A DNA stretch of 35,866 nt, taken from assembly GCA_000934665.2 (NCBI GenBank), contig JYFJ02003976.1:1-35866 (forward strand). Reading direction: 5' to 3'. Source of the stretch: Catajapyx aquilonaris. Lineage: Eukaryota. Of this stretch, positions 1 to 29,442 are shown piece by piece (positions within the stretch are counted from its first letter, which is position 1; each line of letters begins with the position of its first letter). The notes under the pieces are model-generated. The model was given only the letters and a program-made list of their open reading frames with translations. It was not told the origin of the DNA and ran no database searches. The position numbers and the translations under genes are program-made.

Positions 1-95
1 ATAGCCATAATTATTGCAAAGGTTACTACTAAATCAATGAGTCACTCCTATGGAAAAGTCTTTCATAACCCGAGCAACGCCGGGTATCCTGCTAG
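1..95 (+). mobile_element. Helitron 3' terminus (element continues off the left edge), inserted in an intron of G1
   Basis: Subterminal hairpin CCCGAGCAACGCCGGG (69-84) followed by CTAG (92-95) and then T, the canonical Helitron 3' end. Host intron sequence (taattttataatcacatg) resumes immediately after. A near-identical end lies at 20444-20470. Confidence 0.8.
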
Positions 96-156
96 TAATT
101 TTATAATCACATGTCATATTTCCGTGAAATTATAGGTACAACAGAATAGGTCTCAC

Positions 157-753
157 TTGAAATTCTACCTGTGGGGAAACATCATGGGGATGAATGTTTT
201 CTTCCTCAGACGATGAATAATTTTCTTCCTCAGAGAATGAATTATTTTCTTCCTCAGACAATGAAATATCGGTGTTCTCATCATCAGGAAATAACTTTTC
301 AGCTCGTTTTTTCTGTGAAAATTAATTTTAAGATGTGTAAGACACATACGCGCACTAAAATTGAGTCATGTACAATTTTGTTTAGAATCGTTACCAGCAG
401 TTTTTTCATGTAACTTGGCACATTATATTTCTTACAGTAGTAGTCAAGGAAGTTCATCAGGACATGTTCCTTTTTAACCTTTTTCCCAAAATGTGCTTCA
501 CAATTAACCACATCTTCCATATTGCCGACGATCGTTACGAATTGTCCTGTTGAAATTAACTGATTTAGAATTAACTATAATCGACACAGAATAATGTGGC
601 ATGACCTTCTCGGAAAATGTCCCTGAGATTAAATCCCTTCAAGCACACCCCATGAAGGAAAACACTGTCGCTTGAAAAACCATAGTAGAGTTCTTCATCT
701 CCATAATCCACCAAAAGACTTTTCCTGATCATTCCAACAATATTGCCTTTCAT
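157..753 (-). CDS. Family copy G1, partial: exons 1-3 present, exons 4-5 deleted, last exon outside the window
   Basis: ATG at 753. Exons 753-606, 546-395 and 312-157 have GT-AG boundaries and an open frame (MKGNIVG...GQFV...KKRAEKLFPDD...SEEEN x3...QVEFQ). Deletion junction at 111-113. Confidence 0.65.
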
Positions 754-1334
754 TGTGAATGGAAAAAAGATGTCTCTCACATATATCACAGCTATAGATG
801 CACGAATGCTCTTATCAACAAGAATAAAGCTGATGCATCGTTATCTCTTTATCTCATTTGTGTGAAGTAGGTTCCTATCAAAACATCCCACAGCTACACG
901 GGGGTTTTCCCCCATGCGGTGGTACTTCCCCGTTCAAGTAGAAGTAATAATAATTCTCCACTAGTTTGTGGATAATTAAAGTCTGAAACAACTGCTGTTT
1001 GAAAATGGCAGCTCGCATGCGATTGCATGAAATCTTGTTTATTTTTTGCGGCTATGAAATTACACTTGATGCATGTTCCACAGTTGAGCAGTTTGAATGA
1101 ACACATTTGCAATGAACATTAAAAAGGGTAATTACGACGGTATGTGGAAATCGAATTAAATTGGGCAGCAAATTTTCTCAGCAAGTCCATGAAATCAATC
1201 ACGTCCCAATCGTTCGACAGGTTCCAATGCATGTGAGTTACGAGTGCGAGCAGGATGATGTGGACGGGATGAAGTTTGAACAGAAGGATGAAGAAGAAGA
1301 TCAGGGAAGTTGCGGACACTGCGTCGTTGTCGTT

Positions 1335-2664
1335 CTAGATTAACGAGCTGCAAGTTTCTGAGTCGCACGAAGGTTGTTCACAACTTGTCAAATCATGCTG
1401 TGCCTTGTCGCTTTTGCTTGTTGCATCTGGATGCTCTGTAAAATCTTCCTGTTTTTCTCTCGTAATGATTTCCTTGCTTAACGAGGATGATGAATCAATC
1501 AGCACTGTTTCCTCATCTTCTAAGTTGACGATTGGAGCCCACAAGCGCATCAGATCGTCACCCAGGTAGTCTGCCCAATCGTCGTCTACAGGCTCACTGC
1601 TTGTTAGTTGGTCGTTAGGGGTATTACTCTTGCACTGTAAGTATACAACACACTGTTGATAGTACACAAGGAATAATTTTATACATGGAAAAATGATTCT
1701 TACTTTTAGACTTTCACAGCTTGAAGAAGCAGCCAGAGAATCATTTGTCTTGTTGTCGGGTAATCTTATTTCATCCATCTCTTTCTGTGGAGTAGAGCGA
1801 CCATTATTATTCATGTACACAATCATTTTGTACTTGTGCATACTTGTTCACGTGCAGTGAGGTTCATGAAAAATAATGCATTGCGCAAAAAGTTTTGTTC
1901 TGTTCACCACGTGCGTTATACCTTAAGTTCTTCCCTTATATTTGCCATGCAGGAGTCGACAATGCCGGGGATCAACTGCATCAGTTCCTGTCGAAGTTCT
2001 TCCTTCTGCAGAAACAATAAAAATATCATGAGTTACGCATGTCACATTTCAATGAAATTATAGGTACAACAGAATGTCTCACTTGCAATTCTACCTGTGG
2101 GGAAGCATCATGGGGATGAATATTTTCTTCATCGGACAATGAAATATCGGTGTTCTCAAAATCATAAAATTGCTTTTCAGCTCGTCTTATCTGCAGAAAT
2201 TAATTTTAAAATGTGTAAGACACACAGCACTTTTTTTACTATAAACTTAAAAAGGAGTCATGCACAATTGTGGTTTGAATAATTACCAGCTGCTCTTTCA
2301 TGTCACTTCGCACGTTATATTTGTGGCAGTAGTGGTCAAGGGATGTAATCAGTAGATGTTTATTATTTCGAAATTCTTCCCCAAAATGTACTTGGCAATT
2401 ATACACATCCTCTTCCATATTGCCGACAATCCTTACGAATTGTCCTGTTGAAATTAACTGATTTAGAACAAACTATCATCCTCACACTTTGTACTTAATA
2501 ATAATGTGGGCATTATAATTATTACCTTGTCTAAAAAATTCCTTCAGGTTAAATCCACTCATGGAAACTCCATAAAGGAAAATGTCATCACTTGTGAAAT
2601 ACCAGTTTCCGTCCTCATCCACCTCAAGTCTTTTCCTGCTTATTCCAAGAATACTGCAGGTCAT
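1335..2664 (-). CDS. Family copy G2, six exons, about 289 aa, truncated by a nonsense codon just before the hydrophobic tail
   Basis: Exons 2664-2526, 2444-2287, 2190-2083, 2005-1922, 1784-1704 and 1634-1335 are all GT-AG and in frame. TAG at 1337-1335 corresponds to CAG in paralogs. The ancestral frame continues to 1119. Confidence 0.7.
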
Positions 2665-3034
2665 GATAAATAAATTATTGTACAAAGATACTGCTTCCCT
2701 ACGGGTGTGTCGCTTTTCAGAAAGCACACCCACAAGTAGGCTACTACACGACAATGACCATCAAAAAGCCTTCCAGGGGGTTTTCTACTAACGGGTTTCC
2801 ACCTCAAGCAGTTCTGAACAGTTTCTGAAAAGGCAGATGAATTCAATCCCCACATGTCTGTGAAGAAATATTCTGAAACAACTAAAATGGAAATGCATTA
2901 TTCCGTCTGGGTAAATGTGTCATTCCATTATTAATTTATTAATTAGCAACAGTTGAGCAGTTTGAATGAACACGTTTGCGATGAACATTAGAAAGGGTGA
3001 TTGGGCACGGTAATTGCAACGGTATGAAGAAATT

Positions 3035-4378
3035 TTAAATAATTATTATCAGGACTTTTATGAACAATCCTATCAAAACGAGCCCAATCACTACACACTG
3101 TGCACAGGTTACTATAAGTTCCAATGCACGTGAGAAATAGTAAGTGCTGTGCCAAGTCAAATCATGCTGAACCTTGTCACTTTTGATTATTGCCACTGCT
3201 TCCTCTTTCTCTCTCTCAATGATTTCTTTGTTGATCATTGGATCCCACAAGCTCATCACTTCGTCACCTAGGTAGTCTGAAATGTAGTTTTCATTGTCTT
3301 CGGGCTCGCTGCTTTTTGGTTGGGAAGTAGCGGTATTACTCTTGCTCTGTAATTACACAACAAGTAGCCTGCTTTGTTGATCCTATACACAAGTAATTTT
3401 ATAATCACATGGCTGAATCATTCTTACTAAACTTTCACAGCTTAAAGAAGCAGTCGGAGAATCATTTGCCCCGTTGGCTGATAATTTCATTTCATCGATG
3501 ATCTCTTTCTGTGGAAATATAGCATTACTGGTGTATGCAATGTAATTGTTTCGTACTCATGCACACAACTTAAAACATGAAGTAAGGTTAAGGGAAAATT
3601 ATGTGCCGCACAGAAAGCTTCAAGCTGTCATCATGTTTACCTTCAGTTCTTCCCTTTCCCTTATCTTTGCCATGCAGGTGTCGACAATGCCGGGGATCAA
3701 CTGCAGCAGTTCCTGTCGAAGTTCTTCCTTCTGCGGAAATAATAAAAATCCCATGAGTTATGTATGTCATATTTCTGTGAAATTATATAGGTAGGCCTAC
3801 AACAGAATAGGTCTCACTTGAAATTCTACCTGTGGGGAAACGTCATGGGGATGAATATTTTCTTCATCGGACAATAAAATATCGGTGTTCTCATAATCAG
3901 GAAATAGCTTTACAGCTCGTTTTTTCTGTGAAAATTAATTTTAAAATGTGTAAGACACAGCACTTACTTTTAAAAAATACTGAAAAGGAGTCATGTACAA
4001 TTTTTGTTTAGAATCATTACCAGCCGGTTTTCCACATAACTTGGCACATTATATATCTTGCAGTAGTAGTCAAGGATGTTCATCAAGGCATGTCCCTTTC
4101 TAACCTTTTCCACAAAATGTGCTTCACAATCAACCGCATCCTCTTCCATATTGCCGACAATCCTTACGAATTGTCCTGTTGATGAACTGATTTAGAATCA
4201 ACTATAATCGACACAGAATAATGTGGCATTTACCTGCTTGGAAAATATTCCTGAGATTAATTCCCTTCAAGCACACCCCATGAAGAAAAACCTTATCGCT
4301 TGGAAAATTACAGTACTTTTCATCGCCATTATCCACACGAAGTATTTTCATGCTTACTCCAACAATACTGCCTTTCAT
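3035..4378 (-). CDS. Family copy G3, intact six-exon gene, about 296 aa, with a distinct C-terminal hydrophobic helix
   Basis: Exons 4378-4234, 4175-4021, 3925-3818, 3730-3641, 3508-3428 and 3346-3035 give an open frame ending in LIVTCAQCVVIGLVLIGLFIKVLIIII*. Confidence 0.75.
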
Positions 4379-4805
4379 TGTGAATAGAAAAAAATATGTC
4401 TCTCACGTATCACAGCTAGATGCACAAATACTCTTATCAACGGGAATAAGCTGATGCATTGTTATCTCTTTATCTCATTTGTGTGAAGTAGATTTCCTAT
4501 CAAAACATCCCACAGCTACACCCCATGGAGTGGTACTTCCCCTCGCAACCTGTGAAAATAATAATAATTCTCCACTTGTTTGTGGATAATTAGATTCTGA
4601 AACAACTAACAAGGTTGGCAATGCTGTTTGGAAATGGCAGTGGACATGAAATGTCATGAAATCTTGTTTATTTTTGAGTCTATGAAATTTCACTTGATGC
4701 ATGTTCCACAGTTGAGCACAATTTGAATGAACACGTTTGCAGTGAACATTAGAAAGGGTAATAATTGGGCATGGTAATTGCAAGGGTATGAATAAGGAAT
4801 TATTA

Positions 4806-6343
4806 TTAAATTCTCAGAAAGTCCATGATATCAAATGTGTCCCAATCATTAGACAGGTTCCAATGCATGTGAGTTACAACAAGTGCGAGAAGAATGATGC
4901 GGAAGGGATGGAGACTGAGCAGAATGAAGAAGAAGAAGACCAGGGAAGTGGGCAGGTGTGGTGGCCGAGATGATAACGTCTCGGCTTGCTGTGTGAAAGG
5001 CCCCAGGTTCGATCCCCGCCTGGGGAACTTTCCTTTCACCTGCGTCAGGAGGGTCTCTGACCTGCACCAAGGAGGTGTCTGGCAACCTAACCTCCTGGGG
5101 AACAGCACATGACCCGTGTTCAGACGTGCACCTTGCACCCATGTTCCCTCCCCAAAAATCCCTATCCTTACCTCATGTCCTTTCATCCTTGCACCGGTGT
5201 TAGAAGAAAATAATAAGAAAATTGAAGGAAAATGGTGGTAATCCACCCCCCTATAAGGGCCCATGGCCCTAGCATGGGGTATCGTAAAAATAATAATAAA
5301 TAATAATAAATAAAAATAAATAAAAAAAGACCAGGGAAGTTGCTGAAACTACGTCGTTGTCGTTCTGGATTAACGAGCTGCTAGTTTCTGCGTCACACGA
5401 AGGTTGTTCGCAGTATGTCAAATCATGAAGAACCTTGTCGCTGTTGCTTGTTGCTACTGCTTCCTCTTTTCCTCTCATAGTTTCCGCCTCTTCTAAGTTG
5501 ACGATTGGAGCCCAGAAGCTCATCACATCATCATCAATGTAGTCTGAAATGTTGTCATCATTGTCTTCAGGCCCACTGCTGTTTGGTTGGTCGCTAGTGG
5601 TATTACTCTTGCTCTGTAATTACACAACATAATCATTATATGCCCTGCTTTTACAGTTGATCCTACATAAGTAATTTTATAATCACATGTCATATTCATA
5701 TTTCAAATTATAGGTACAACAGAATAGGTCTCATTTGCAATTTTACCTGTGGGGAAACATCAGGAATATTTTCTTCCTCCTCAGACGATCAATTATATTC
5801 TTCCTCATCAGGCGATGAATTATATTCTTCCTCGGACAAGGAATAATTTTCTTCCTCAGACAATGAAATATCGGTGTTCTCATCATCATAAAATAACTTT
5901 TTAGCTCGTTTTTTCTGTGAAAATTAATAATTTTAAGATGTGTAATAAGACACATACAATATTTTGTTTAGAATCATTACCAGCAATTTTTTCATGTAAC
6001 TTGGCACATTATATTTCTTGCAGTAGTAGAAAAGGATATTCATCAAGGCATGTTCCTTTCTAACCTTTTTCCCAAAATGTGCTTCACAATTAGCCACATC
6101 CTCCTCCATATTGCCGACAATCCTTACGAATTGTCCTGTTGATTAACTGATTTAGAATCAACTCTCATCAACACAGAATAATGTGGCATTACCTTCTAGG
6201 AAAATGTCCCTTAGATTTAATCCCTTCAAGCACACCCCATGAAGGAAAACCTTGACGCTTGGAAAGCCCCAGTAGTTGTACTCTTCATCTCCATAATCCA
6301 CATGAAGTATTTTCCTGCTCATTCCAACAATACTGCCTTTCAT
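4806..6343 (-). pseudogene. Family copy G4, pseudogene
   Basis: Exons 6343-6193 and 6135-5981 are open. Exon 3 has an in-frame TGA at 5791-5789 and its usual donor is mutated (gtgag to atgag). Exons 4-5 are deleted (junction 5687-5689). The last exon (from 5613) is interrupted by a SINE. Confidence 0.75.
4950..5326 (+). mobile_element. Full-length tRNA-derived SINE with a 14-bp TSD
   Basis: tRNA-like head with A box (TGGCCGAGATGA) and B box (GGTTCGATCCC), and an A/(AAT)-rich tail at about 5286-5326. TSD AAGACCAGGGAAGT at 4936-4949 and 5327-5340. Absent from paralogous exons. Confidence 0.9.
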
Positions 6344-6706
6344 TGTGAATGCAAAAAAGATGCCTGTAACATATCACAGCGATAGATGCACAAATGCTCT
6401 TATCAACAAGAATAAAGCTGATGTATGGTTATCTCGTTATCTCAGCTCTGTTTGTGTGAAGTAGGTTCCTATCAAAACATCCCACAGCTACACGGGGGTT
6501 TTCCCCCATGCAGTGGTACTTCCCCGTTCAAGTATAGGTAATAATAATTCTCCACTTGTTTGTGGATAATTAGAGTCTGAAACAACTGCTGTTTGAAAAT
6601 GGCAGCTCACATGCATGAAATCTTGTTTATTTTTTGCGGCTATGAAATTACAATTGATGCATGTTCCACAGTTGAGCAGTTTGAATGAACACATTTGCAA
6701 TGAACA

Positions 6707-8178
6707 TTAAAAAGGGTAATTACGGCGGTATGCGGAAATCGAATTAAATTGGGCAGCAAATTTTCTCAGCAAATCCATGAAATAAATCACGTCCCAATCG
6801 TTTGACAGGTTCCAATGCATGTGAGTTACGAGTGCGAGCAGGATGATGTGGACGGGATGAAGTTTGAACAGAAGGATGAAGAAGAAGATCAGAGAAGTTG
6901 CGGACACTGCGTCGTTGTTGTTCTGGATTAACGAGCTGCAAGTTTCGGCGTCGCACGAAGGTTGTTCGCTGCTTGTCAAATCATGCTGTACCTTGTCGCT
7001 ATTGTTTGTTGCGGCTAGATGCTCTGTAAAATCTTCCTGTTTTTCTCTCGTAATGATGTCCTTGCTTAACGAGTATGATGAATCAATCAGCACTGTTTCC
7101 TCATCTTCTAAGTTGACGATTGGAGCCCACAAGCGCATCAGATCATCACCCAGGTAGTCTGCCCAATCATCGTCTTCAGGCCCACTGCTTTTTGGTTGGT
7201 CGTTAGGGGTATTACTCTTGCACTGTAAGTACACAACATAGGCCCTGCTTTTACAATTGATAATACAAAAGGAATACTTTTATAATCGCACGGAAAAAAC
7301 AATTGACTTTCACAGCTTGAAGAAGCAGTCGGAGAATCACTTGCCTTGTTGTCAGGTAATTTTATTTCATCCATGATCTCATTCTGTGGATATAGAGCAA
7401 GCATTATTATTTATGTACAAAATCATTTCGTACTTGTGCACACAAGGTATTAATAATTATTCACGTGCATTGAAGTTCATGAAAAATAATGCATTGCGCA
7501 GAAAGTTTTGTTCTGTTCACCACGTGCGTTATACCTTCAGTTCTTCCCTTATCTTTGCCATGCATGAGTCGACAATGCCGGGGATCAACTGCATCAGTTC
7601 CTGTCGAAGTTCTTCCTTCTGCGGAAATATTAAAAATCTCATGAGTTATGCATATGTCACATTTCAATGAATTATAGGTACAACAGAATATTTCTCACCT
7701 GTGGGGAAGCATCATCATGGGGATGAATATTTTCTTCGTCGGACAAGAAAATATCGGTATTCTCATAATCATAAAATCGCTTTTCAGCTCGTCTTTTCTG
7801 TGGAAATTAATTTTAAAATGTGTAAAGACACAGCATGAGTCATGCACAATATTGTGCTTATAATAATTACCAGCTGTTCTTTCATGTCACTCCGCACATT
7901 ATATCTAAAGCAGTAGTAGCCAATGGATGCATTCAGTAGATGTTTATCATTTCCACATTCTTCCCCAAAATGTACTTGGCAATTATCCTCATCCTCTTCC
8001 ATATTGCCGACAATCCTTAAGGCTTGTCCTGTTGAAATTAACTGATTTAGAATAATAAACTATCATCCTCACACTACTTGTACTTAATAATAATGTGGGC
8101 ATTATAATCATCACCTTGTCTGAAAAATTCCTTCAGGTTAAATCCACTCATGGAAGCTCCATGAAGGAAAACCTCATC
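6707..8178 (-). pseudogene. Family copy G5, probably degenerate
   Basis: Exon 1 is 5'-truncated (remnant about 8178-8115). Exons 8028-7871, 7797-7699 and 7618-7535 are intact. Exon 5 (from 7383) has lost its gtaag donor. The last exon (7222-6707) is open and retains the hydrophobic helix. Confidence 0.65.
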
Positions 8179-8694
8179 TGGCTCCAGGGATAACAGTTTC
8201 CCCCTGAATCAGTTCTGAACAGTTTCTGAAAAAGGCAGATGAATTCAATCCCCCACATGTCCGTGAAGAAATATTCTGAAACAACTAAACTGGAAATACA
8301 TTATTTTTGTAATTACAATTATCCACTTATTCTATTTGAACATTTTGAACAGTGGGCAGCCACCAGAACGCTCCCCAATTTGTTTCAATTTTAGTCCGCT
8401 TCGTACTACGTGTCGCCACTTGACATCAAAAAAATTACAGATAAATGCACGGCTAAATACCTGGCATAATTATTATTATTACACATAATTAACACCAAAT
8501 ATCAAGTGATTGCTTGCCATCTTTAATTTTATTTGTGAAATTAATCTTGATTTTGTGTTCCACAGTTGAGCACAATTTGAATGGATACCGTTTGCGAATT
8601 GCGATGATGAACATTAGAGAGGGTAATTAGCCATAGTATAATTGCAACGGCATGCAGAAATTTTCTCAGCAAGTCCGTGAAATCAATTGTGTCC

Positions 8695-9992
8695 CTATGC
8701 ATGTGAGTTATAATAATTGCGAGTAGGATGATACGGAAGGGATGGAGATGGAACTGGTCGAAATGTCCGTGGCTCGACGTCCCTAGGACGTCCATAGGAC
8801 GTCACTGTGCTGTCTGGGAAGCTCATCACTTCATCATCACCAACATAGTCTGAAATGTAGTTTTCATTGTCTTCAGGCCCAGTGCTTCTTGGATGGGCAG
8901 TAGCGGTATTACTCTTGCGCTATAATTACACAACATATAGCTTGCTTTTAACGGTGATCCTACAGTAAAAATCATTCTTACTAGACTTTCACAGCTTGAA
9001 GAAGCAGCCACAGAATCATTTGCCCCGTTGGCTGATAATTTTATTTCATCCATGATCTCTTTCTGTGGAAATATATCATTACTCATGTATGCAATGCAAT
9101 TGTTTCTTACTCATGCACACAACTTTACAGAAAGCTTAATGCTGTTGACCTCATGTTTACCTTCAGTTCTTCTCTCATCTTTGCCATGCAGGTGTCTACA
9201 ATGCCAGGGATCAACTGCAGCAGTTCCTGTAGAAGTTCTTCCTTCTGCGGAAATAATATAAATCCCATGAGTTATGTATGTCATACTTCCGTGAAATTAT
9301 AGGTACTGTACAACAGAATAGGTCTCACTTGCAATTCTACCTGTGGGGAAGCATCATGGGGATGAATATTTTCTTCCTCGGACGATGAAATATATTTTCT
9401 CAGAGGGAATGAAATACTTATTTCTTCCTCAGACGATGAAATATTTTCATCCTCAGACAATGAAATATTGGTATTCTTATCATCAGGAAATAGCTTTACA
9501 GCTCGTTTTTTCTGTGGAAATTAATTGGAAAATGGGTAAGACACAGCATTAATTTTTTTAGAAATACACATACTAAAATGGAGTCATGTACTACAATTTT
9601 GTTTAGAATCATTACCAGCAATTTTTTCATGTAACTCGGCACATTATATTTCTTGCAGTAGTAGTGAAGGGATTTCATCAAGACATGTTCCTTTTTAGCC
9701 TTTTTCCCAAAATGTGCTTCACAATTAACCAGACGATCCTCTTCCTTATTGCCGACGCTCTTGCCGACGATCATTACGAATTGTCCTGTTGAAATTAACT
9801 GATTTAGAATCAACTATCATCAACACAGAATAATGTGGCATTACCTTCTTGGAAAATGTCCCTGAGGTTAAATCCCTTCAAGCACACCCCATGGAGGAAA
9901 ACCACGTCGCTTGTAAAACGACAGTGGTCCTCTTCATCTCCATAATCCACATGAAGTCTTTTCCTGCTCATTCCAACAATACTGCCTTTCAT
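8695..9992 (-). CDS. Family copy G6, six exons, about 296 aa, lacking the membrane helix
   Basis: Exons 9992-9845, 9785-9616, 9511-9329, 9244-9161, 9062-8982 and 8919-8695 are in frame. The last exon has a foreign segment of about 64 bp replacing host sequence, which shifts the frame to a TAG at 8697-8695. Confidence 0.7.
8755..8818 (-). mobile_element. DNA-transposon terminal fragment (CCCAG..GCACA end with GACGTC subterminal repeats, CMC/EnSpm-like)
   Basis: The minus strand reads CCCAGACAGCACAGTGACGTCCTATGGACGTCCTAGGGACGTCGAG. It is absent from the other paralogs. The superfamily assignment is from recollection of terminal motifs only. Confidence 0.45.
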
Positions 9993-10180
9993 TGTGAATG
10001 CAAAAAAGATGTCTCTAACATATCACAGCTACAGATGCACAAATGCTCTTATCAACAAGAATTAGGCTGATGCATCTTTATTTCTTTATCTCATTTGTGT
10101 GAACGAAGTAGATTATTCCTATCACAACATCCCACAGCTACACAGGGTTTTTCCCCATGTAGTGGTACTTCCCCTCCCAA

Positions 10181-10181
<1 letters not shown>

Positions 10182-10266
<85 letters not shown>
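10182..10266. repeat. (AAT)n microsatellite, about 28 units
   Basis: Pure TAA/AAT run. Paralogous positions (about 946, 4557, 6539) have only 2-4 units. Confidence 0.95.
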
Positions 10267-10682
10267 TTCTCCACTTGTTTGTGGATAATTATTCTGATTT
10301 TGACGTGTTTTACTAAGAGAACCATGTTGCATGGCAAACATTATATTTTAGCCTTCTAATATATATTATTTTGGCATCAATTATTATGACTGTAGTCGTC
10401 TTGTTATTTTATTGATAAATCATTTAATTTAACACTGGTCTTGCTGTTCCTTTCATTCCATAGAGATTCGGTGCCTGATACTGATAAAAATGGCCTTATT
10501 GGGAGGTTGGAAATGCTGTTGGCAGCTCAAATGAAATTGGATGAAATCTTGTTTATTTATTGCGGCTATGAAATCACACTTGGCGCATGTTCTGCAGTTG
10601 AGCAGTTTGAATGAACACTACGTTTGCGATGAACATTACAAAGGGTAATTGGGCACAGTAATTGCAAAGGTATGAAGAAATA

Positions 10683-12373
10683 TTAAATTCTCAGAAAGTC
10701 CATGATATCAAATATGTCCCAATCATTAGACAGGTTCCAATGCATGTGAGTTACAACAAGTGCGAGTAGGATGATGCGGAAGGGATGGAGACTGAACAGA
10801 ATGAAGAAGAAGAAGATCAGTGAAGTTGCGGAAACTACGTCGTTGTCGTTCTGGATTAACGAGCTGCAAGTTTCTGAGTCGCATGAAGGTTGTTCGTAGT
10901 TTGTCAAATCATGAGGAACCTTGTCGCTGTTGCTTGTTGCTACTGCTTCCTCTTTTCCTCTCATAATGATTTCCTTGCTTAACGAGCAGGATGAATCAAT
11001 CACCACAGTTTTCTCCTCTTGTAAGTTGACGATTGGAGCCCACAAGCTCATCACATCATCACCAAGGTAGTCTGAAATGTAGTCACCATTGTCTTCAGAC
11101 CCACTGCTTTTTGGTTGGTCGTTAGCGGTATTACTCTTGCTCTGTAATTACATGCAACACATGGCCTGTTTTCACCATTCAAAAGTACAAATGAATAATT
11201 TTATAATCACATGGAAAAATGATTCTTACTAGACTTTCACAGCTTGAAAAAGCAGCCAGAGAATCATTTGTCTCGTTGTCGGGTAATTTTATTTCATCCA
11301 TGATCTCTTTCTGTGGATATAGAGTGTTATTCATGTACTACGCAATATTTTTGTACTCGTGCACACAACCTAAAACATGCAATGAGGTTAATGAAAATAA
11401 TAATAATGTATTGCACATGTTGTGGTGTTCATTCACCTTCAATTCTTGTCTGATCTCGGCCATGCTGGAGTCTACAATGCCGGGGATCAACTGTAGTTTC
11501 TGTCGCAGTTCTTCGATCTCCTTTGGAAATTAATTTAAAAAATCACATGCGTTTTATGCAAGCCATATTTCAGAAAAGTAAGAAACAACTCAATATATAT
11601 TTTTTCTCTCACCTGTAGTATGTGCAAGGCAGCATCATGGGGATCAACATTCATATGGGACCAAGAAGCAGTGGTGTTCGCATCATCAGGAAATAGATTT
11701 TCAGCTCGTTGTTTCTGTGAAAATTTAATTGGGAAATATGTAAGTACAGTACTGGTACATATTTTTTTAATGCACATACTAAAGTGCTATTTTGTACTAT
11801 TTTGTTTCAAATAATTACCAGCAGCTCTTCCATGTAACTTGGCACATTATATTTATTGCAGTAGAAGTCAAGGGATGTCATCAGTGGAGATTTCTTTTTA
11901 ATTATTTTCCCAAAATGTGCTTCACAATTGTCCTCATAATCATCCAGGTCACCGACAATCATTATGAATTGTCCTGTTGTAATTATAATTACTCTAGAAT
12001 GAACTATCATCATCACACTTGCTGTTGGCAAGTATAATTAATTAAAGTTTTTTTTTTTTTTTTGCAAACACAACATGTCAAGAAAAAATGTAACTTTTCA
12101 AGAGACACATAAAACATTACCTGCTTTTCAAAATAGGATTTTCACATATTTTAAAAATAATAATATCTTATGGACATGTTTGATGATGATGATGATGATG
12201 ATGACTTCAATTTTGCTTCTTTTACCTTCTTGGAAAATATCCCTGAGCTTAAGTCCCTTCATGCACACTCCATGAAGGAAGACATTATCGCTTGTGAAAT
12301 ACCAGGTGTTGTACTCATCGCCATAATCCACCTCAAGTCTTTTTCTGCTTATTCCAACAATACTGCCTTTCAT
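10683..12373 (-). CDS. Family copy G7, intact six-exon gene, about 342 aa, predicted C-terminal membrane anchor
   Basis: Exons 12373-12226, 11973-11819, 11714-11613, 11520-11437, 11310-11230 and 11141-10683 total 1029 nt, all GT-AG with consistent phases. The C-terminus is SATSLIFFFFILFSLHPFRIILLALVVTHMHW...MDFLRI*. Confidence 0.8.
12180..12204. repeat. (GAT)n microsatellite in intron 1 of G7
   Basis: tgatgatgatgatgatgatgatga. Confidence 0.9.
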
Positions 12374-13154
12374 GCCTAATAAATTGGCAAAGCTTCTAGT
12401 TGCACCAAAACTAACCCAGAAACTAAGCAACAAGATGATCTGACGCAATACACACTACTTATCTCAGTATCTCTGTGATGATTGTAAGATATTTGCTATA
12501 TCAAAAGCACCTCTCCCCTTCCCATCATGCAGTGTGACTTACCCTCTCAAGTAAAATAAAAAAAATCTCCACTTATCTTATCAAAAAGTGGAGGGAGGCC
12601 TTGATCCTGGGCACCCCCAACCGACCATCTGGATGCAATATTTTTGATAGCCTATTAATTTTTCCATATTTGATTAGCCAATGCTTAGGCATGATATGAT
12701 GAACTCAACAACTCTTTTTTTTTTAAATATGTGATATCTATAGTAGATGTAATTATTATGAGTATGACTAATAATATGCATTTATTTTAGAAGGAATGCC
12801 CTATAGCTGCAGATGAAGGCGGGAGTTCAAGAAAGGGATTTAAGATGGCTTGTACGCAATTCAATTTAAGCAAGAGGTGGATTCAGAATCACACTGTGTG
12901 AGTGTGTCCCCAAAGATGTGCAAGTGAAGTGTAAAGAGGACAAGATATTTTGTGTCTACCCTTATTGATGCGAATGGCTCGAGAAAACAATATTGCTTTA
13001 ATTATTGTGCAGGTGATTGCAGTTGACGGTTGCTATGGTGTTGTTTGGAATGTCTTTGTTATTGTTTAGATGTGTCTGGTAGTTTAGAAGCAGAAGAGAG
13101 ATTGATTGTGGTGCAGGAGAGCTGCTGTGTCTCACACACAAGGGTACAAAGGCG

Positions 13155-14157
13155 ATGGAGGCCACAATTGCTGATAACATCAACAGGTGCGGATACTGAT
13201 TGCATAAGCTCGAATACATTAATGCATTTTAGCAGGAGATGAAGTTGCCCTTTGTGTTGGTAATGATGTATGGGTTTTTGTTACCGCCACAGTACTATAT
13301 TCCATGTGGCCCTGCCAGGAACGGTTCCTAGCCCTACAGGATATTTAAAAAAAAAGTTCAATGCGAGCCAGAGCAAGCTAGGCTCTTGTTGTGGGTTCAG
13401 AATCCGCCAACAATGTTTACGCCTCAGTCGTGTGAAATATTTTCCCTCCTAATCTCTATTAACAATTTTGATGTGCACCAGTAATATTATCCTATAATTC
13501 TATGATGTGTCTGTTTGTAGGCTATTTCCCAGATGGCAAATTCATCCCATGGTGAAAGGGGTAGCCGGAAAGAGTGATGATGCTATCGTGATTAAGCAAG
13601 AGAGGCTCTCACCAGTTCAAGATGGCGATGAAGAGGATGAGTTGGACATTGGGGAAGTGGAGGTGAAGACTGAAGAGTTGGAGGTGAAGACTGAAGAGGA
13701 AGAGGAAATGCTGGTGGATGCTCCAAACATCACCAAAGGAATTGAAGACCCACTTGGCGCAGTTCCTGCAATGCCTGCGCAGCCTGGACCTAGACCATTT
13801 AGTTTCAAGATTTGTTACAGAACATTTATTCCGTGTAGCAGTGACATGATGAAGCGCAGTGGAGCGGCGAAGCCACTGTTGTGTCAGGAATGTGGCAAAA
13901 CTTTCCTTTACCGCTCAGCCTTGGCGAAGCACCGTAGAATTCACACTGGAGAGAGGCCATACCAATGTGAAGAGTGTGACAAGTCATTCACGCAGAAGGG
14001 TGGGCTAGTTGCACATGTGAGGACCCATACTGGGGAGAGGCCGTACAAATGTCTGGAGTGTGACAAAACGTACATGCAGACGAATGGGCTAGTTCAACAC
14101 ATGAGGACTCATACCCGTGTCAAGATGAGTGCCACAAGTCGTTCACACATATGTTGA
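13155..14157 (+). CDS. C2H2 zinc-finger protein, subfamily II copy 1, about 218 aa, 3 intact fingers
   Basis: Exon 13155-13186 (MEATIADNIN-R) splices in phase 2 to exon 13533-14157 (WQIHP...IKQE...EDPL...). TGERPY linkers are present and the first finger is degenerate. Confidence 0.75.
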
Positions 14158-14344
14158 TCACAGGAGTTAAGTTGCGGAGCGAACACGTTTGAATAGCCCG
14201 GGTTTGAAGGTAACAGATAATTAACGTTCTATTTATTTTAAAGCGTCGTACATTACCATCCCATGGTTAAATCCGAGGCATTTAATTAACTAATCAATAG
14301 TTAATATCTTAATACAATTTTTTATATATATTAACAGCGGTTGT

Positions 14345-14465
14345 GTTGGCACCATTGGGCCTCGTTCGGCATTCAAGATGGCGCCCAAGTTCTGTGCAGA
14401 AGCGTCAACTCTCCAAGTGTATGACGTTTAATTAGACTTGTAATTACACTGGGAGGAGTGCAGGT
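14345..14465 (+). promoter_or_regulatory. Conserved promoter/5' UTR module of subfamily I ZNF genes
   Basis: CCATTGG, CAAGATGGCG (YY1-type, 14374-14383) and TGACGTTTAATTAGAC, followed by a donor gcag|gtaa. Repeated at about 16205-16335, 21025-21165 and 29610-29740. Confidence 0.6.
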
Positions 14466-14644
14466 AATTAGACTTGATGTGCAGGGCATGCTCAGTACAC
14501 AGGGAAGTAGGGCTCAGGTGTGAGGGTGGAAGGGCAGGCCTTTATTTGTTTCGAAGTGTGCGGCAGGCACATCCGAATGTTCCTCTTTGGCAGACCCTCC
14601 AAGGTTGGGACGTGGATTGAGGTCATTGGGTGACCTGCAGGGCC

Positions 14645-15657
14645 ATGACCTCGTTGGGGGTCAAGGAGGAGCTGGAGGAAGGAGACGTGACGGTGGAGGA
14701 GACATGGCGGCTGCGTCTCAAGGAGGAGACACCGGCGTGCTTCGACGGGGACTCTACGCTCTTCATAGAAGAAAGTCTGCGTGAGATAAAGCAGGAAAGG
14801 GCAGATGAGGAAGAAGAGATGGTTTTGGTCACGCCCAGTGCTGTCGAAGAAGAAGAAGACCCATTAGCACTTGGTTCCAGAAGGACTAATGCGGTAAGTA
14901 ACCATGCTGTAATTGCGATATAAATATTGCACTAAACTTGATTCCCACATTTCAGATCGTGCAGGATACCACAGGAGACGGAGCGGAAAAGAGCGGAATC
15001 CAGCCAGGAAGGAACATGGACGTCTGCTCTGATAAAAAAAATCCACTTGAATGTGTAATATGCCATGATTTGTTTGCTACCCCATATAAACTGGACATTC
15101 ACATGTTTTCTCATAATGGTAGATATTGCTGCCGCTTTTGCCAGAAGAAATTTCGTAGGTCAGTTTCTTTCCAGTCTCACATGCAAAGTCATGGGGAGAC
15201 ACCATTTGTATGTGAGGTATGCCAAGAGAGATTTTGGGATTCAAATGGCCTTGAAGCTCACATGAAAATTCATACGGGAGTCGTATGTAAGGTGTGCCGC
15301 GAAAGATTGAATGATTCAAGCAGTTTGGAAAGCCACATGCGAATTCATACAGGAGAGGGGCCATTTAATTGTTACCTGTGCTCCAAAAAAAATTGTTGCA
15401 GTGTAAATGCTTTGAAAAATCACTTGCAAAATCATTACGGAGAGAGACAATTTAAATGTAAGGTGTGCCAGAAATTATGTTTCAGTACAGGTGCGTTGAA
15501 AATGCACATGGAATATCATAATGAACCATTTCATTGTATGGTGTGCCAGAGAAAATTTCGTAGTGCAAGTAATTTGAAAGGTCACATGCGTGCTCATGCC
15601 CGGGAGAGTAAGTGTCCATGTGAAGCATGCAAAAAAAATAATGTATCATGCAAGTAG
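14645..15657 (+). CDS. C2H2 zinc-finger protein, subfamily I copy A, about 316 aa, 7 fingers
   Basis: gccATGa start at 14645. Exon 14645-14893, 62-nt intron (gtaagt...tttcag), exon 14956-15657, phase 0. An eighth finger is frameshifted. Confidence 0.85.
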
Positions 15658-16204
15658 TTGGAAAACTCACATCGAATTCATACAAGAGAGAAACTATTTA
15701 TTATTGAGCCATGCCATAAAAAATTTAGTAATTGACCATCAGGCTTTTAAAAATAATATAAAACAGGCAAACATATATGGTCTCCAGGTGAAAATACCGT
15801 AACTGATGAAAGTGGCGTGATCCACGCAGGCATAATTTATCTGTCCAAGATCGTGTCAGATTTTGCAAACACGGTTCTGCAATTTGATTAATAACAATGC
15901 GTCAAGACTTGCACATGTGATTGATAACATGTCGACTATACAAATGTTATGCTGAGTAATGTGAAGCCTAACATGATTGTCTTGTACCGTTTACATCAGT
16001 TGCAATATTTAGGAATGCATGTTGTGCAAATGCAGATAATTTTTTTTTTAAATTAAGTAGGGAGTGGAATTATTTTGTTATTTCTTATTAGATGTGCTCT
16101 GTTTGTATTTTGTGTGGACGAATCAGGATTTATTTTTGAACATACCATAAGATAACATTAATAAATATTTCCAGAAAAAATTATGCCTTAGAATCTACCT
16201 TCTT

Positions 16205-16335
16205 GTGTTGGCACCATTGGACGGCTGTCACTTGTTCGTATTCCAAGATGGCGGTCAAGTTTTCTGAAAACATGAACTTCCGGACAGTGTATGACGTTTA
16301 ATTAGACGTGTAATTACACAAGGGTGAGTGCAGGT
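16205..16335 (+). promoter_or_regulatory. Subfamily I promoter/5' UTR module (copy B)
   Basis: CCATTGG, CAAGATGGCG at 16244-16253 and TGACGTTTAATTAGAC. Confidence 0.6.
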
Positions 16336-16504
16336 AACTAGGGTTGATGTGCAGGGCATGCTCAGTACGGGGAAGGAGGGCTCAGGTGTGAGGGTGGAAG
16401 GGCAGGCCTTTTGAAGTGTGCGGCAGGCACATCCGAATGTTCCTCTTTGGCAGACCCTCCAAGGTTGGGACGTGGATTGAGGTCATTGGGTGACCTGCAG
16501 GGCC

Positions 16505-18078
16505 ATGACCTCGTTGGGGGTCAAGGAGGAGGAGGAGGAGGAGCTGGAGGAAGGAGAAGACCTCAAGGTGGAGGAGACGTGGAGGCTGCGTCTCAAGGAG
16601 GAGGCACCGGGATGCTTCGAAGGGGACGCCACGCTCTTCATAGAAGACACGCTGCGTGAGATCAAAGGGGAGGCAGCGGAGGAGGAGGAAGAGATGGTGG
16701 TGGCCACGTCCAGTGGTGTCGAAGATGAAGACGACCCATTAGCACTTGGCTCCGGACGGATTAGCGCCGTAAGTAATCATGCTGAAATTGCGATATAAAT
16801 ATTGCACTAAACTTGATTCACACGTTTCAGATCGTGCAAAATACCACTGAAGATGGAGCAGGAAAGGGTGGAATCCAGGAGGAAAGAAGCACTATAGGAT
16901 ATCCACGTGCATGCAGAGTATGCCAGACATTGTTTGGTACTCTGCATGAATTGGAAATTCACATGTTAACTCATACTAGTGGAAAAAATCGCTGCCTTAT
17001 TTGCCTGAAGACATTGTGTGATGAAAGGAGTTTGAGAGCCCACATGCAAACTCATACGGGAGAAAAGTCATTCATTTGTGGGGTGTGCCAGAAAGGTTAT
17101 AGTCAGTCAAAGACTTTGAAGAAACACATGCGAGTTCATACAGGAGAGAAACCATCCATTTGTGAGGTGTGCCAGAAAAGATTTAGGTCTTCAAGCAATT
17201 TGAATGATCACATCCGAATTCACACGGGAGAAAAACCATTCATTTGTGAGGTGTGCCAGATAAGTTTTGGTCAGTCAGGCAGTTTGAAATTGCACATGCG
17301 AACTCATACAGGAGAAAAGCCATTCATTTGTGAGGTGTGCCAGAAAGGTTATAGTCATTCAAATACTTTGAAGAAACACATGCAAGTTCATATCAGTGAG
17401 AGACCATTTTCTTGTGAGGTGTGCCAGAGAAGGTTTTGGTCTTCAAGCAATTTGAATGCTCACACCCGAACTCACACAGGAGAAAAACCATTCATTTGTG
17501 AGGTGTGCCAGACAAGTTTTGGTCATTCAAGCAGTTTGAAATATCACATGCGAACTCATGCGGGAGAAAAGCCATTCATTTGTGAGGTGTGCCAGAAATG
17601 TTATAGTCATTCAAAGACTTTGAAGAAACACATGCGAGTTCATACCAGTGACAGTGAGAGACCATTTTCTTGTGAGGTGTGCCAGAGAAGATTTTGGTCT
17701 TCAAACAATTTGAATGTTCACATCCGAACTCATACGGGAGAAAAACCATTCATTTGTGAGGTGTGTCAGACAAGTTTTGGACATTCAGGCAGTTTGAAAT
17801 TGCACATGCGAACTCATACCGGAGAAAAGCCATTCATTTGTGAGGTGTGCCAGAAAGGTTTTAGTCAGTCACAGGCTTTGAAGCAACACATGCGAGTTCA
17901 TACCGGTGAGAGACCATTTTCTTGTGAGGTGTGCCAGAGTAGATTTAGTTCTTCAGGCCATTTGAAATCTCACATGCGAACTCATACGGGAGAAAAGCCA
18001 TTCATTTGTGAGGTGTGCCAGAAAGGTTTTAGTCGTTCAAGGACTTTGAAAAGCCACATGCAAACTCATAAGAAATAA
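16505..18078 (+). CDS. C2H2 zinc-finger protein, subfamily I copy B, about 503 aa, 14 fingers
   Basis: Exon 16505-16768, intron 16769-16830, exon 16831-18078. Tandem CxxC-x12-HxxxH fingers with TGEKPF linkers. Confidence 0.9.
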
Positions 18079-18721
18079 AAGCCATTCATTTGTGAGGTGT
18101 GCCAGGAAAAATTTCCCAGTCCAAATATTCTTAAACATCACATGCAAATTCATACTTTAACACAGAATGTAATACAGGAAGTGCCCGATTTACAATGACT
18201 TAAGGCGATCCGCACTTATGAACGAGCTCCTAAATCTCTCCATAAGCCATTTGTAATTATTCCTTAACTTTCAATCACTTCTGCGTACGTTGACCAACAC
18301 CAAGTTCAACATATTAAATACTGCATAACTAATAAATAATTGGGAAACCCTGCTCTTATGAACACGTAAACAAACTCATTACATAAGTGGTTCATTGGAG
18401 CAGTATCTTTATGCAGTGTATGCGCCTGTACCTCACCGATCCAAGTTACATGCAAATCCGAGTTATGGACACTTTCAGGAACGTAACCCCTTTCGTAGAC
18501 CGGGGACTACCTGTAATAATTATACTGAGTCCATATGTCATGAAAAATTTAGTGATGAACCATCAGGCAAGCTTGTTCTCAGTGTGAAAATAGCTGATGA
18601 AAGTGATGCATGCTGCTGTGACATTATTTCAAAGCCATGCTAAAAAATGCAAGACCATAACGTTTCTGTGCAACATAACGTCACATTTTGCAAGCGCAGT
18701 ATGTTTTTCTATTATTTAATT

Positions 18722-18961
18722 GAGGCCGTCAGAGGAAAAAAATGGCATATCCCTACGGGAGTTCATTTTGAGATAAATGGCTTTTTGTGTTGCAAGAGAA
18801 TAGGATGTTCCATTACGGACCAACTTTACAAGTGGAATTTGGGAGCTTTGGCATGTCCCAATCCATTTTGGGAGCTCAGCACATGTAAGGTAGATGGCAG
18901 GAGAGTACAAAAGCACTACAATCTCAAAATCGGATTATGCCGTTTTTCCTCAGAGCGCCTC
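18722..18961. mobile_element. 240-bp MITE, Sola-like (GAG termini, AATT TSD)
   Basis: Imperfect TIRs GAGGCCGTCAGAGGAAAAAAATGGCAT and ATGCCGTTTTTCCTCAGAGCGCCTC, with AATT on both sides (18718-18721, 18962-18965). It interrupts a 3' UTR that is continuous in paralogs. Confidence 0.75.
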
Positions 18962-19139
18962 AATTTACAATGATACATCGGACTTGCACATGTGATTGAT
19001 AACATGTCTTGCTCAATAATGTGGAGCATAACACTTACCGCTACACAGTGTCTTTGTATACAGTACTTTGTACTATCACGTTCAAACAGATTGTCCTCAC
19101 TGTTTATTTTCTTATGTGTTTATCCCTATGGGGAGCTTT

Positions 19140-19215
19140 TTTGCGGGGCTGGGGGGGGGGGGGGNGGGGGGGGGGGGGGGGGTGCCCCCCGCCCGCCCCC
19201 CTAAATCCGCCACTG
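19140..19215 (-). mobile_element. DNA-transposon end of the CAGTGGCGGAT type (hAT-like), with a poly-G tract containing an N
   Basis: The minus strand begins CAGTGGCGGATTTAGGGGGGCGG. A related end, CAGTGGCTGATCCAGA, ends at 19636. Confidence 0.45.
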
Positions 19216-19343
19216 CGTGTAATTAAATGGGCAAAAAACCCGTAAAACCGCACACGTGGACAAACGACCCTTAGGCACACCAATACTTTTGATGTGCGAA
19301 TAATGTTCTGTGTATAGGATTGAGACATTGTGATAAGTGAATG

Positions 19344-19588
19344 TTAATAATGAATACCCCGTGATAGGCCTCTTAGGGGATCATCTTTTCGTGAACCGAC
19401 TTTAATCATTGTCTGCGTGTGATGGATTTTGATTGCGGGAGGAAACGGGAGGACCCCGAGAAAACCAACGCGAACACGGAGAAACTCCATCCACATAAGT
19501 ATCCTCTGCGCGACCCGGGGATCGAACTCGGGACCTTAGAGGTAGAAGGCTGTGGCGCTAACCACTCCGTCACGGCGCCACTAAACGC
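19344..19588 (-). mobile_element. tRNA-derived SINE with a 12-bp TSD (second family)
   Basis: Minus strand head GGCGCCGTGACGGAGTGGTTAGCG...GAGTTCGATCCC and a central GGTTTTCTCGGGGTCCTCCCGTTTCCTCCC motif resembling conserved SINE body domains. TSD GATAAGTGAATG at 19332-19343 and 19589-19600. Confidence 0.85.
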
Positions 19589-20440
19589 GATAAGTGAATG
19601 AAAAAAATGAAGAAAAAACCTCTGGATCAGCCACTGATTGCACGTGCCCTAATGACCCTTTAAATTTTAAATTGTTTAATTTTTAAAATGATTCATATTA
19701 TTATCGTTATGGACGATAATATTATCCTACCAAATTTTATTGAGATCAAAAAATTGGGGGTGAACATACTTTGAATTTTATTTTGCATGCTCTGTCGTGG
19801 AATCTCCCATCAATTAATTGCAAAAAAAAAATTGTGCGAAAGACGATATCCAAATAAATGCTACAGATGAACAAGGGACCCGGAGGCCAGAAAACGCCCC
19901 CTCCTTGCGCACCCGGCAGTATTTATTCCCCCTCGCTATATCACGCCTCTTTTTTTTCTTTTTCTAAGCCTACATCAAGAGCTCTTGCCTACATTAGGTC
20001 TAATTTTTCAAGCCGCGATGATCGTACGATTCGTACCTGTTCCCGACCGTATACAAGAACATTATAGGAACGTATATTTTGGTGGCTGATAGGGTTGCCA
20101 CTTGAACCGGGATGGCAGCAGATCAAATGAAAATGTTATTTTTTTCCCTGAAAAGTTGGAAAATGTGCATTATCTCTATCTCGATAAATAAGGAAGTTTG
20201 TCAGTTTGGATGTTTGTCCCTTATAGAAATCCAGGGGAAGGCCCCTACACCGCCTTAAATTAGCATATCGGGAGTTACATTTTTCAAGGAATTTAATGCC
20301 GCATGTTTCAGCTTCCGAAAATGAACCTAACACCCATAACACGCATATTCCCAATTAATCAATTGCCAATTACCTATTTAACAATATTCATAGATTTCCA
20401 TGGTAATGCCCTCATTACATTGTAGGCCTACCACAATAAC

Positions 20441-20470
20441 TTACCCGGGCAACGCCGGGTAACCTGCTAG
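20441..20470 (+). mobile_element. Helitron 3' terminus (5' end not located)
   Basis: Hairpin TTACCCGGGCAACGCCGGGTAA, then CTAG followed by T. Confidence 0.75.
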
Positions 20471-21024
20471 TTTATACAGTTTTGCCTTGATCCCCCCGGG
20501 GGGAGTGTTGCCCGGGTCGTGGCCATAGCCTCATCCGCCCCTCTCGCCCCCCTTCCCCCAAATCACCCCAAATAAACACCTTTTCACACCCATCAGACAA
20601 CGCAATGCCCCTCCCACTCCCGCCCACCTCCCAAGACCCCGACCGTGGGACCCTGGGGCCGTGGGACCGCGACCGTGACCCGTGATCACAGTGCTGTGGA
20701 TTCCGGAATAACGCCAAATAAACAACCGCGGTTACCTTGGAGCGCCCAGGATAGCCAACACATAAACACATAAGAAAATAAACGGTGAGGACAATCTGTT
20801 TGAACGTGATAGAACTACATAAGTTGCAATATTTGCATATTGAGAAATGCGCATGATGTGCAAATGGGGATTTATTTTTTTTCAAACATACACTGGGACT
20901 GATATTATTTTGTTCTTTTTTATTAGATGTGACCTGTTTGTATTTTGTGGGACGAATCAGAAATATTTTGTGACGCTAATAAATACTTGAAGGAAAATCT
21001 CTACATGATGTGAGTGGCTCTTTA

Positions 21025-21165
21025 TGTTGGCGCCATTGGGCGATTGTCACCTGTTCGGAATCCAAGATGGCGCCGATTGTCGTCTGAAAATCTGAAATTC
21101 ATAACATTCCGAACGTTGAATGACGCTTAATTAGACGTGTAATTACCCTGGGAGGAGTGCAGGTA
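21025..21165 (+). promoter_or_regulatory. Subfamily I promoter/5' UTR module (copy C)
   Basis: CCATTGG, CAAGATGGCG at 21063-21072 and TGACGCTTAATTAGAC. Confidence 0.6.
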
Positions 21166-21338
21166 ACTAGGGTTTGATGTGCAGGGCATGCCCAGTGCAG
21201 GGAAGGAGGGCTCAGGTGTGAGGGTGGAAGGGCAGGCCTTTTGTTTCGAAGGGTGCGGCAGGCACATCCGAATGTTCCTCTTGGCAGACCCTCCAAGGTT
21301 GGGACGTGGATTGAGGTCATTGGGTGACCTGCAGGGCC

Positions 21339-22621: not shown

Positions 22622-22784
22622 ACCGGCTCCCAAGGCTCTCTATAAGGACAATTTATAATAATTATTCCTCCACGTTCAGTCACTTCTGTACACTTAGACT
22701 GACACCAAGTTCAACAGAAATATAAATAATAGGGGAAATTACTTTCTGCCGCATGTCTAAACACACACACCCACACATATATAT

Positions 22785-23535: not shown

Positions 23536-23591
23536 ATATATGTTGCAATATTTGCAAATTTAGAAATGCGCATGATGTGCAAATGGGGATA

Positions 23592-26304: not shown

Positions 26305-26727
26305 CAAAGATATTCATAGTGATAGAAATGAACTTATTGTCTCAGTATAACTGTGACACGCTGATGTTCTGCAAGTTAGAGTCTGAGCATGTCAAGTCAT
26401 TAATTTTGGGCTTATGTATACGTATTAATCATTTCTAAAAGTTTCACCCAAAAAAGTGTCCTGATTGCATTGATAGCCATTGATAGCCAATAAAGATGAG
26501 TTACGTGTTTGAAAAGATAAGCATTTCCCACGTGTTTGTGTGCGTTTTCTTGTGCAATTGCCCCTTTTTGCTGTGATCTTTTCATTGATGGTTGCTATGG
26601 GAATTTTGGGTTGTTTGGAATGTTTTCGTTATTGTTTGGAAGTGTCTGGTAGTTTAGAAGCAGAAGAGAGATTGATTGTGGTGCAGGAGAGCTGCTGTTG
26701 TCTCACACTCAAGAGCATACAAAGGTG

Positions 26728-29332: not shown

Positions 29333-29336
<4 letters not shown>

Positions 29337-29378
<42 letters not shown>

Positions 29379-29387
29379 TAATAATAA

Positions 29388-29441
<54 letters not shown>
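29337..29441. repeat. Interrupted (AAT)n microsatellite
   Basis: About 35 AAT units with two AAA interruptions. Confidence 0.95.

Positions 29442-29442
<1 letters not shown>

Follow-up and report, generated by a model that had tools for sequence, protein, structure and literature searches.

Tail-anchored membrane proteins with a cytosolic N-terminal domain, among them VAP-A/B, emerin, cytochrome b5 and BNIP3/NIX, have one transmembrane segment, which lies within roughly 30 residues of the C-terminus. LIR-type motifs are short linear motifs that bind Atg8/LC3 and are found in anchored autophagy receptors. Taxon-restricted tandem gene families evolving by birth and death are a general concept. 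Here we analyzed a stretch of 35,866 nucleotides from Catajapyx aquilonaris (contig JYFJ02003976.1 of assembly GCA_000934665.2; the whole stretch is called the window), in which positions 157-12373 hold seven tandem copies of a gene on the minus strand. We consider, with a probability of about 0.6, that the copies form a taxon-restricted tandem array of small animal genes which evolves by birth and death and would encode an acidic, C-terminally anchored protein.

The copies were located by direct-repeat analysis and are 1.7-2.2 kb apart. Numbered G1 to G7 by plus-strand coordinate, they have exon 3 anchors at positions 253, 2131, 3866, 5855, 7738, 9452 and 11655, respectively, and G2 and G5 are the type-B copies. 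The G+C content is 35-42% in the first 13 kb of the window and about 36% in the array sequence, and the open reading frames (ORFs) of the window are broken up in all frames. Long-range repeat pairs occur at a constant offset of 5.59 kb (for example, 1024-1323 and 6612-6911, with 98% identity), and therefore G1-G2-G3 and G4-G5-G6 are two copies of a three-gene unit. G7 lies outside this higher-order repeat.

A sequence-only reading of the window had joined six exons at conserved GT-AG sites, in phases 1, 0, 0, 0, 0, to give seven genes encoding proteins of about 290-340 aa. The tandem copies, the splice sites and the phases were borne out, as 28 of the 29 homologous junctions are GT..AG and the sole exception is the exon 5 donor of G5. 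The six-exon layout is found in five copies, but G1 and G4 have lost exons 4 and 5 and only G7 is intact in the canonical form. Open frames encode 342 aa in G7, 292 aa in G3 and in G6, and 285 aa in G2; G5 has no start codon, and G4 is interrupted by a stop codon. The number of intact genes had thus been put too high.

We then compared the predicted junctions with X1, one public sequencing run whose library type is not on record and which contains 24% of the words sampled from 2500-12450. The X1 contigs were placed on positions 1-13000 and gave 14 joints. Nine of these joints remove predicted introns exactly, with CT..AC on the plus strand (GT..AG on the minus strand): introns 2, 3, 4 and 5 of G7, introns 2, 3 and 4 of G5 (7797/7871, 7618/7699 and 7383/7535), intron 5 of G6 (8919/8982) and intron 2 of G2 (2190/2287). 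Another joint in G5 (7222/7345, CT..GC on the plus strand) represents a GC-AG intron, which replaces the lost exon 5 donor and keeps the frame. The X1 contigs also fixed the exon 6 acceptor at 11141 in G7, 8919 in G6 and 7222 in G5, in each case 6 nt upstream of the nearest AG. The contigs of G7 and G6 end at 10537 and 8512, respectively (the latter contig covering 8512-8919), 15-24 nt past an AATAAA/ATTAAA poly(A) signal. Since the introns are missing and the contigs end just past the poly(A) signals, we infer that X1 is cDNA.

Only in G7 are a start codon and all six exons combined with an in-frame canonical hydrophobic segment at the C-terminus. Its first five exons of 148, 155, 102, 84 and 81 nt and a last exon of 459 nt, including the stop codon, form an open frame of 342 aa. 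On the minus strand, exon 1 (12226-12373) starts with the ATG at 12373-12371 and ends in phase 1 at a GT donor. Exon 2 (11819-11973) encodes the second half of the N-terminal domain and a helix-prone YNVPSY segment, and its donor is confirmed by the X1 joint 11714/11819. Exon 3 (11613-11714), bounded by that joint and by 11519/11612 (cut +1), encodes a linker that in other copies holds an acidic Ser-rich minisatellite. Exon 4 (11437-11520), which encodes a helix-prone segment and is the most constrained exon, and exon 5 (11230-11310) are delimited by X1 joints, which for exon 5 are 11310/11437 and 11141/11230. Exon 6 (10683-11141) encodes an acidic region, a W-x-x-I motif, the hydrophobic segment and a tail of 19 residues before the TAA at 10685-10683, and is covered by the X1 contig 10537-11141. 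Two overlapping AATAAA/ATTAAA signals at 10552-10561 (minus strand) precede the end of this contig by 15-24 nt. Intron 1 of G7 (11974-12225) is 252 nt long, compared with 57-86 nt in the other copies, and includes (CAT)n and poly-A runs.

The four other X1 joints link different copies (217/3886, 2399/8114, 3926/2363 and 4174/2525), as might be seen if the units were modules repeated within a single transcript, either long or trans-spliced. We consider such a transcript highly improbable. An ATG opens each unit whose exon 1 is intact, every unit has a stop codon followed by AATAAA/ATTAAA within about 80-165 nt, and the contigs stop shortly past the poly(A) signals. In addition, two of the inter-copy joints run backwards and one carries 32 foreign letters, which fits k-mer chimeras or outside paralogues better. 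We take the inter-copy joints as assembly chimeras or as paralogues outside the window; our reading of the 32 extra letters, found in joint 2399/8114, is that they are the start of exon 2 from a copy outside the window. This joint and 4174/2525, which is within the 3-nt tolerance of the predicted 4175/2526, fall at the boundary of exons 1 and 2 and give intron 1 its only support. The distance from the stop codon of one unit to exon 1 of the next is only 364-691 nt. Each unit having its own stop codon and poly(A) signal, and the gaps being this short, the units are therefore separate, closely packed genes. The X1 contigs leave uncovered G7 exon 1, G1 exons 1-2, G4 exons 1-3 and G6 exons 1-2, to which no evidential weight is attached.

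The remaining copies, all on the minus strand, differ in how far they are damaged. G6 (8695-9992) has exons at 9992-9845, 9785-9616, 9511-9341, 9244-9161, 9062-8982 and 8919-8695 and poly(A) signals at 8533 and 8527. Its 292-aa frame is open, but exon 6 has suffered a deletion and a frame shift, so that the anchor is no longer in frame. G5 (type B, 6707-8208) has lost the ATG and about the first 20 codons through a deletion relative to G2, which leaves an exon 1 fragment at 8208-8115 followed by exons at 8028-7871, 7797-7699, 7618-7535, 7383-7345 and 7222-6707. The remainder of G5 is open with the canonical anchor in frame; the canonical exon 5 donor is lost and a GC donor is used in the X1 contig.

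G4 (4806-6343) is a pseudogene. It has exons at 6343-6193, 6135-5981 and 5914-5747, a TGA at 5791-5789 in exon 3, a deletion of exons 4 and 5, and an exon 6 (5613-4806) split by a 378-nt insert resembling a short interspersed nuclear element (SINE). The insert (4950-5327, no strand assigned) is flanked by a 14-nt target-site duplication at 5328-5341 and 4936-4949 and splits the exon 6 match. This SINE-like element is very abundant in X1 (summed depth of 392.9 in the bin 4775-5208), and ARAGORN called no tRNA in 4950-5327.

G3 (3035-4378) has exons at 4378-4234, 4175-4021, 3925-3830, 3730-3641, 3508-3428 and 3346-3035, an X1 contig at 2895-3082 and an open frame of 292 aa. A deletion in exon 6 puts its last ~35 residues in another frame than in G7, so the hydrophobic C-terminus of G3 is frame-shifted and not homologous to that of G7. 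G2 (type B, 1119-2664) has exons at 2664-2526, 2444-2287, 2190-2095 (or 2083), 2005-1922, 1784-1704 and 1634-1119. A TAG at 1337-1335 stops its frame at 285 aa, just ahead of the hydrophobic segment, and this stop codon is carried with 0 differences by the X1 contig 1275-1459. G1 (partial, 157-753) has exons at 753-606, 546-395 and 312-169 (or 157), which are open, and the window start truncates it beyond exon 3. One common deletion in G1 and G4 fuses intron 3 to intron 5, so that exons 4 and 5 are lost. At most three of the copies could be whole genes: G7, G3 and possibly G1. Past the deletion scar of G1, at window positions 1-169, the family pattern gives way to unrelated, possibly repeat-derived sequence, where loose ends of X1 contigs lie at 96. 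The array may extend leftward beyond the window start.

The predicted G7 protein of 342 aa is strongly acidic (58 Asp plus Glu and 29 Lys plus Arg). Exons 1 and 2 encode an N-terminal domain of ~100 aa, with one His and two Cys among its invariant residues. Exon 2 is helix-prone toward its end, and AlphaFold2 (AF2) placed a helix at exon 2 residues 29-41 with a predicted local distance difference test (pLDDT) score of ~64 there and an overall mean of 47.7. Exon 3 encodes a variable acidic Ser-rich linker. When exons 4 and 5 were inspected by eye, we found ~12 and ~23 helix-prone residues parted by Pro-Gly. The sequence-only reading had called this stretch a coiled coil, a label that was too generous, as we think the stretch is too short for it. 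Most of the acidic exon 6 has no predicted structure (AF2 mean pLDDT of 50.7, and below 50 for residues 33-90); this acidic stretch is probably disordered. An acidic W-x-x-I/V motif is conserved in the otherwise variable exon 6 of G2, G4, G5 and G7, with a variant in G3. The sequence motifs quoted in the sequence-only reading are present, and its protein anatomy was largely right.

Near the C-terminus is a hydrophobic segment of ~30 residues, which is broken by a conserved His-Pro. The AF2 model splits the segment at this site into helices at exon 6 residues 89-118 and 120-138. After the segment follow 19 residues in G7 and 36 residues in G5. The Kyte-Doolittle score in 19-residue windows (KD19) reaches 2.31 in the C-terminal segment, and windows above 1.6 occur only near the C-terminus. 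No N-terminal hydrophobic segment was found over the first 30 window starts, where the KD19 maximum is 0.43 in G7, 0.83 in G3 and 0.54 in G5. By these windows the protein has, as proposed earlier, no signal peptide and, as in the tail-anchored class, no earlier hydrophobic segment. From its sequence, the G7 protein is probably membrane-anchored at the C-terminus. The proposal of a tail anchor stood in part: the canonical segment is in frame in G7 and G5, but in these two copies only, and G5 has no start codon, the segment is interrupted by the His-Pro, and G2 and G6 are without the anchor.

Comparison of the copies further showed that exons and introns vary differently. Indel lengths between pairs of copies are divisible by 3 in 112 of 129 exon cases (87%) versus 43 of 170 intron cases (25%), the pairs not being independent, and the earlier claim that most indels keep the frame holds for the exons. 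The length of exon 3 varies through an in-frame minisatellite of 24-27 nt; its 24-nt form encodes Ser/Glu-rich repeats at 9361-9469 in G6 (minus strand) and is also found at 190-265 in G1 and 5767-5833 in G4. The exon identity of G7 to the other copies is 0.79-0.83 versus 0.65-0.72 for introns. In 10 pairs, pN/pS is 0.64-0.86 (one-sided Fisher p of 0.009-0.19, below 0.05 in 6 of 10), and exon 4 has a pN/pS of 0.29 (109 codons in G7-versus-other comparisons); the ratios of exons 3 and 5 exceed 1. The Nei-Gojobori dN/dS is 0.53-0.88 in all 21 pairs, which indicates weak constraint. Open frames, conserved splice sites, in-frame indels and spliced contigs together mark the family as protein coding, with weak purifying selection. 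Such a pattern belongs to a family that is young and fast-evolving, with several of its members dead already; the rapid evolution had been anticipated, and is evident in the dN/dS values, the exon 3 minisatellite and the frequent lesions.

Several observations weigh against the view that the array encodes working anchored proteins. Constraint is weak by dN/dS, the ratios of exons 3 and 5 are above 1, and differences are spread nearly evenly across the three codon positions (63/46/59 for G7-G2, for example). In G1-G6, exon identity is not above intron identity (for example, 0.847 versus 0.892 for G1-G3). Lesions are found in four of the six judgeable copies (G2, G4, G5 and G6), and the canonical anchor and a start codon occur together in G7 alone. 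Both single-exon AF2 models are of low confidence. No X1 contig lying wholly on one copy covers G7 exon 1, or intron 1 of any copy in the window, and the RNA origin of X1 is our deduction, the run having no recorded library type.

The weak ratios, the even codon positions, the poor conservation of G1-G6 exons and the lesions, together with the loss of exons 4-5 in G1 and G4 and the stop codon carried by the G2 contig, would also fit a decaying array. Under this explanation, the ancestral gene was coding and every copy, including G7, is now a transcribed relic without protein function that retains a leftover promoter and splice signals. We regard this as unlikely, although it is the strongest of the alternatives. 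G7 keeps a frame of 342 codons open over six exons at about 36% G+C, and its exons are better conserved than its introns; exons 1-5 are open in four of six copies. The excess of in-frame indels in exons over introns and the pN/pS of exon 4 also speak against a family of relics.

Relatives of the family were searched exon by exon, so that the N-terminal domain was covered as two halves of ~50 aa each. No Pfam family matched any of six exon peptides or ORFs at E up to 1, and none matched any of the seven exon 1 peptides at E up to 10. An unrelated domain of unknown function (DUF; E = 0.086) matched only one of the seven exon 2 peptides, and no match to a Pfam-A family approached the gathering score. 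Profile searches of Protein Data Bank (PDB) sequences gave a best E of 0.048 for exon 1 and 0.83 for exon 2, with no sensible fold. In a word-index protein search, none of 294 candidates for G7 exon 6 scored, nor did any of the 2056 word-sharing candidates for the exon 2 profile. An exhaustive HMMER search with a 151-position profile, for exon 6 only, gave 0 hits in 1.84 billion representatives. In the ESM atlas, exon 2 had no usable match, and exon 6 returned two unnamed clusters at 0.94 (recognition of 1126 versus the mark of 2300), which were taken as noise. Four peptide motifs of the family were not found in the full text of papers, which is a weak result as such motifs are rarely printed.

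As a control, a neighboring zinc-finger ORF (16840-18078) was searched and matched zinc-finger proteins in the thousands, from fishes, molluscs, insects and other scattered taxa, with a best identity of only 52-53% among the 120 matches listed. Since none of those 120 exceeds 53%, the large protein database does not contain the proteome of this genome and appears to be without its close relatives. The ORF is one of a group of C2H2 zinc-finger genes, at least eight in number and of two types, that cluster on the plus strand at 13000-32700. Each of these genes has an N-terminal exon that is acidic, Glu-rich and without a Pfam match.

It might be asked whether the array encodes a diverged member of a characterized protein family that was missed because exons were searched singly. 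The searching of the ~100-aa N-terminal domain as halves and the gap in the database revealed by the zinc-finger control leave some room for this, as does a faint resemblance to the end of the region formed by DM10, a domain of NME7 and EFHC proteins. In chain 9e2g_0Q of the PDB, which is a putative nucleoside diphosphate kinase (NDK7-like chain), residues 63-88 align with ~25 residues at the N-terminus of the array protein, and the two share a VDYGDE-like motif. With E = 1.2 (12.1 bits) and no Pfam support, the resemblance is at chance level. Unlike a true DM10, the array protein would have only the last strands of the ~90-residue domain, no exon 1 peptide of the seven copies has a Pfam match at E up to 10, and the short gap between one stop codon and the next exon 1 leaves no room for upstream coding exons. 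Given also the Pfam results for exons 1 and 2, the absence of any PDB sequence below E = 0.048 and the empty exon 2 and exon 6 profile searches, we find a missed family membership improbable, somewhat more so than decay. The claim that the family is lineage-specific fits every exon-by-exon search, with the N-terminal domain searched as separate halves. It is a real gene family with no detectable relative and was not found in print.

If the array is indeed a birth-and-death family of anchored proteins, its founding form would have had six exons, as is now the case only in G7. The founding protein would have consisted, in order, of the N-terminal domain, the acidic Ser linker, the short, constrained helix-prone module of exons 4-5, the long acidic and probably disordered stretch with W-x-x-I, and the hydrophobic segment. 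Because it has no signal peptide, the G7 protein would be inserted post-translationally by its C-terminal segment, either as a kinked single span or as a hairpin. The N-terminal domain, linker and motif would then face the cytosol, where the protein could act as a membrane-tethered adaptor. G2 and G6, which are without the anchor, could be soluble variants or could be becoming pseudogenes. A more specific proposal is that this is an orphan family that arose and expanded in one animal lineage, in which last-exon lesions switch copies between anchored (G7) and anchor-less (G2 and G6) forms, with the conserved acidic W-x-x-I of the anchored form serving as an Atg8/LC3-type docking site. We hold this to be a long shot; if true, it would describe a new organelle-tethered receptor with soluble decoy paralogues.

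The upstream regions of some copies contain WGATAR motifs of the GATA-factor type. G1, G3, G4 and G6 have 3-4 forward motifs each at -135 to -60 of the ATG (812-880, 4434-4502, 6400-6474 and 10049-10124, respectively), G7 has one, and the type-B copies G2 and G5 have none, against a background of 0.6 per 200 nt. The 200 nt upstream of each copy contain no TATAWA. The promoter may be GATA-driven, the copies being duplicates whose motif conservation is not independent evidence. Perfect or near-perfect microsatellites occur between G7 and G6, (TAA)28 at 10182-10266, and at 29336-29441, (ATA)35. Elsewhere in the window, 31178-31542 holds a G+C-rich tandem repeat of 69/81/150 nt, which is open in several frames with Ala/Arg/Gln-rich translations and has no Pfam match, and 33214-33349 holds five copies of a 27-nt unit with 99% identity. 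A lone N at 19165 within a G-rich run may mark an assembly gap. Rfam gave 0 matches on 1-13000, and a tRNA scan found 0 genes.

The analysis contributes a spliced gene family, verified here, which annotation based on ORFs would overlook. The exact models and the damage list for each copy of a young tandem array are useful for annotating this genome, and the three-gene duplication, exon 4-5 loss, SINE insertion and anchor loss make a small case study of birth and death. Lineage-specific arrays of uncharacterized genes are common in animal genomes, and this one neither opens nor settles a long-standing question.

Compared with the tail-anchored class, G7 has a similar plan: a signal peptide is lacking, the N-terminal part is globular, the middle is flexible and a lone hydrophobic segment lies near the C-terminus. 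It also resembles that class in its size of ~300 aa and small exon count. However, the array protein has no sequence or profile similarity to VAP-A/B, emerin, cytochrome b5 or BNIP3/NIX. Its ~30-residue segment, unlike theirs, is broken by His-Pro and followed by 19-36 residues, and most copies have lost it. As in LIR-type motifs, an acidic stretch precedes W-x-x-I/V on what would be a C-terminally anchored protein, but a motif of such four residues is common by chance. The closest likeness is to birth-and-death families, from which the array shows no difference in kind, its protein being one without named relatives: it shares with them the head-to-tail arrangement, a higher-order repeat (here of three genes at 5.59 kb), mosaic similarity, intact copies beside broken ones, and relaxed constraint.

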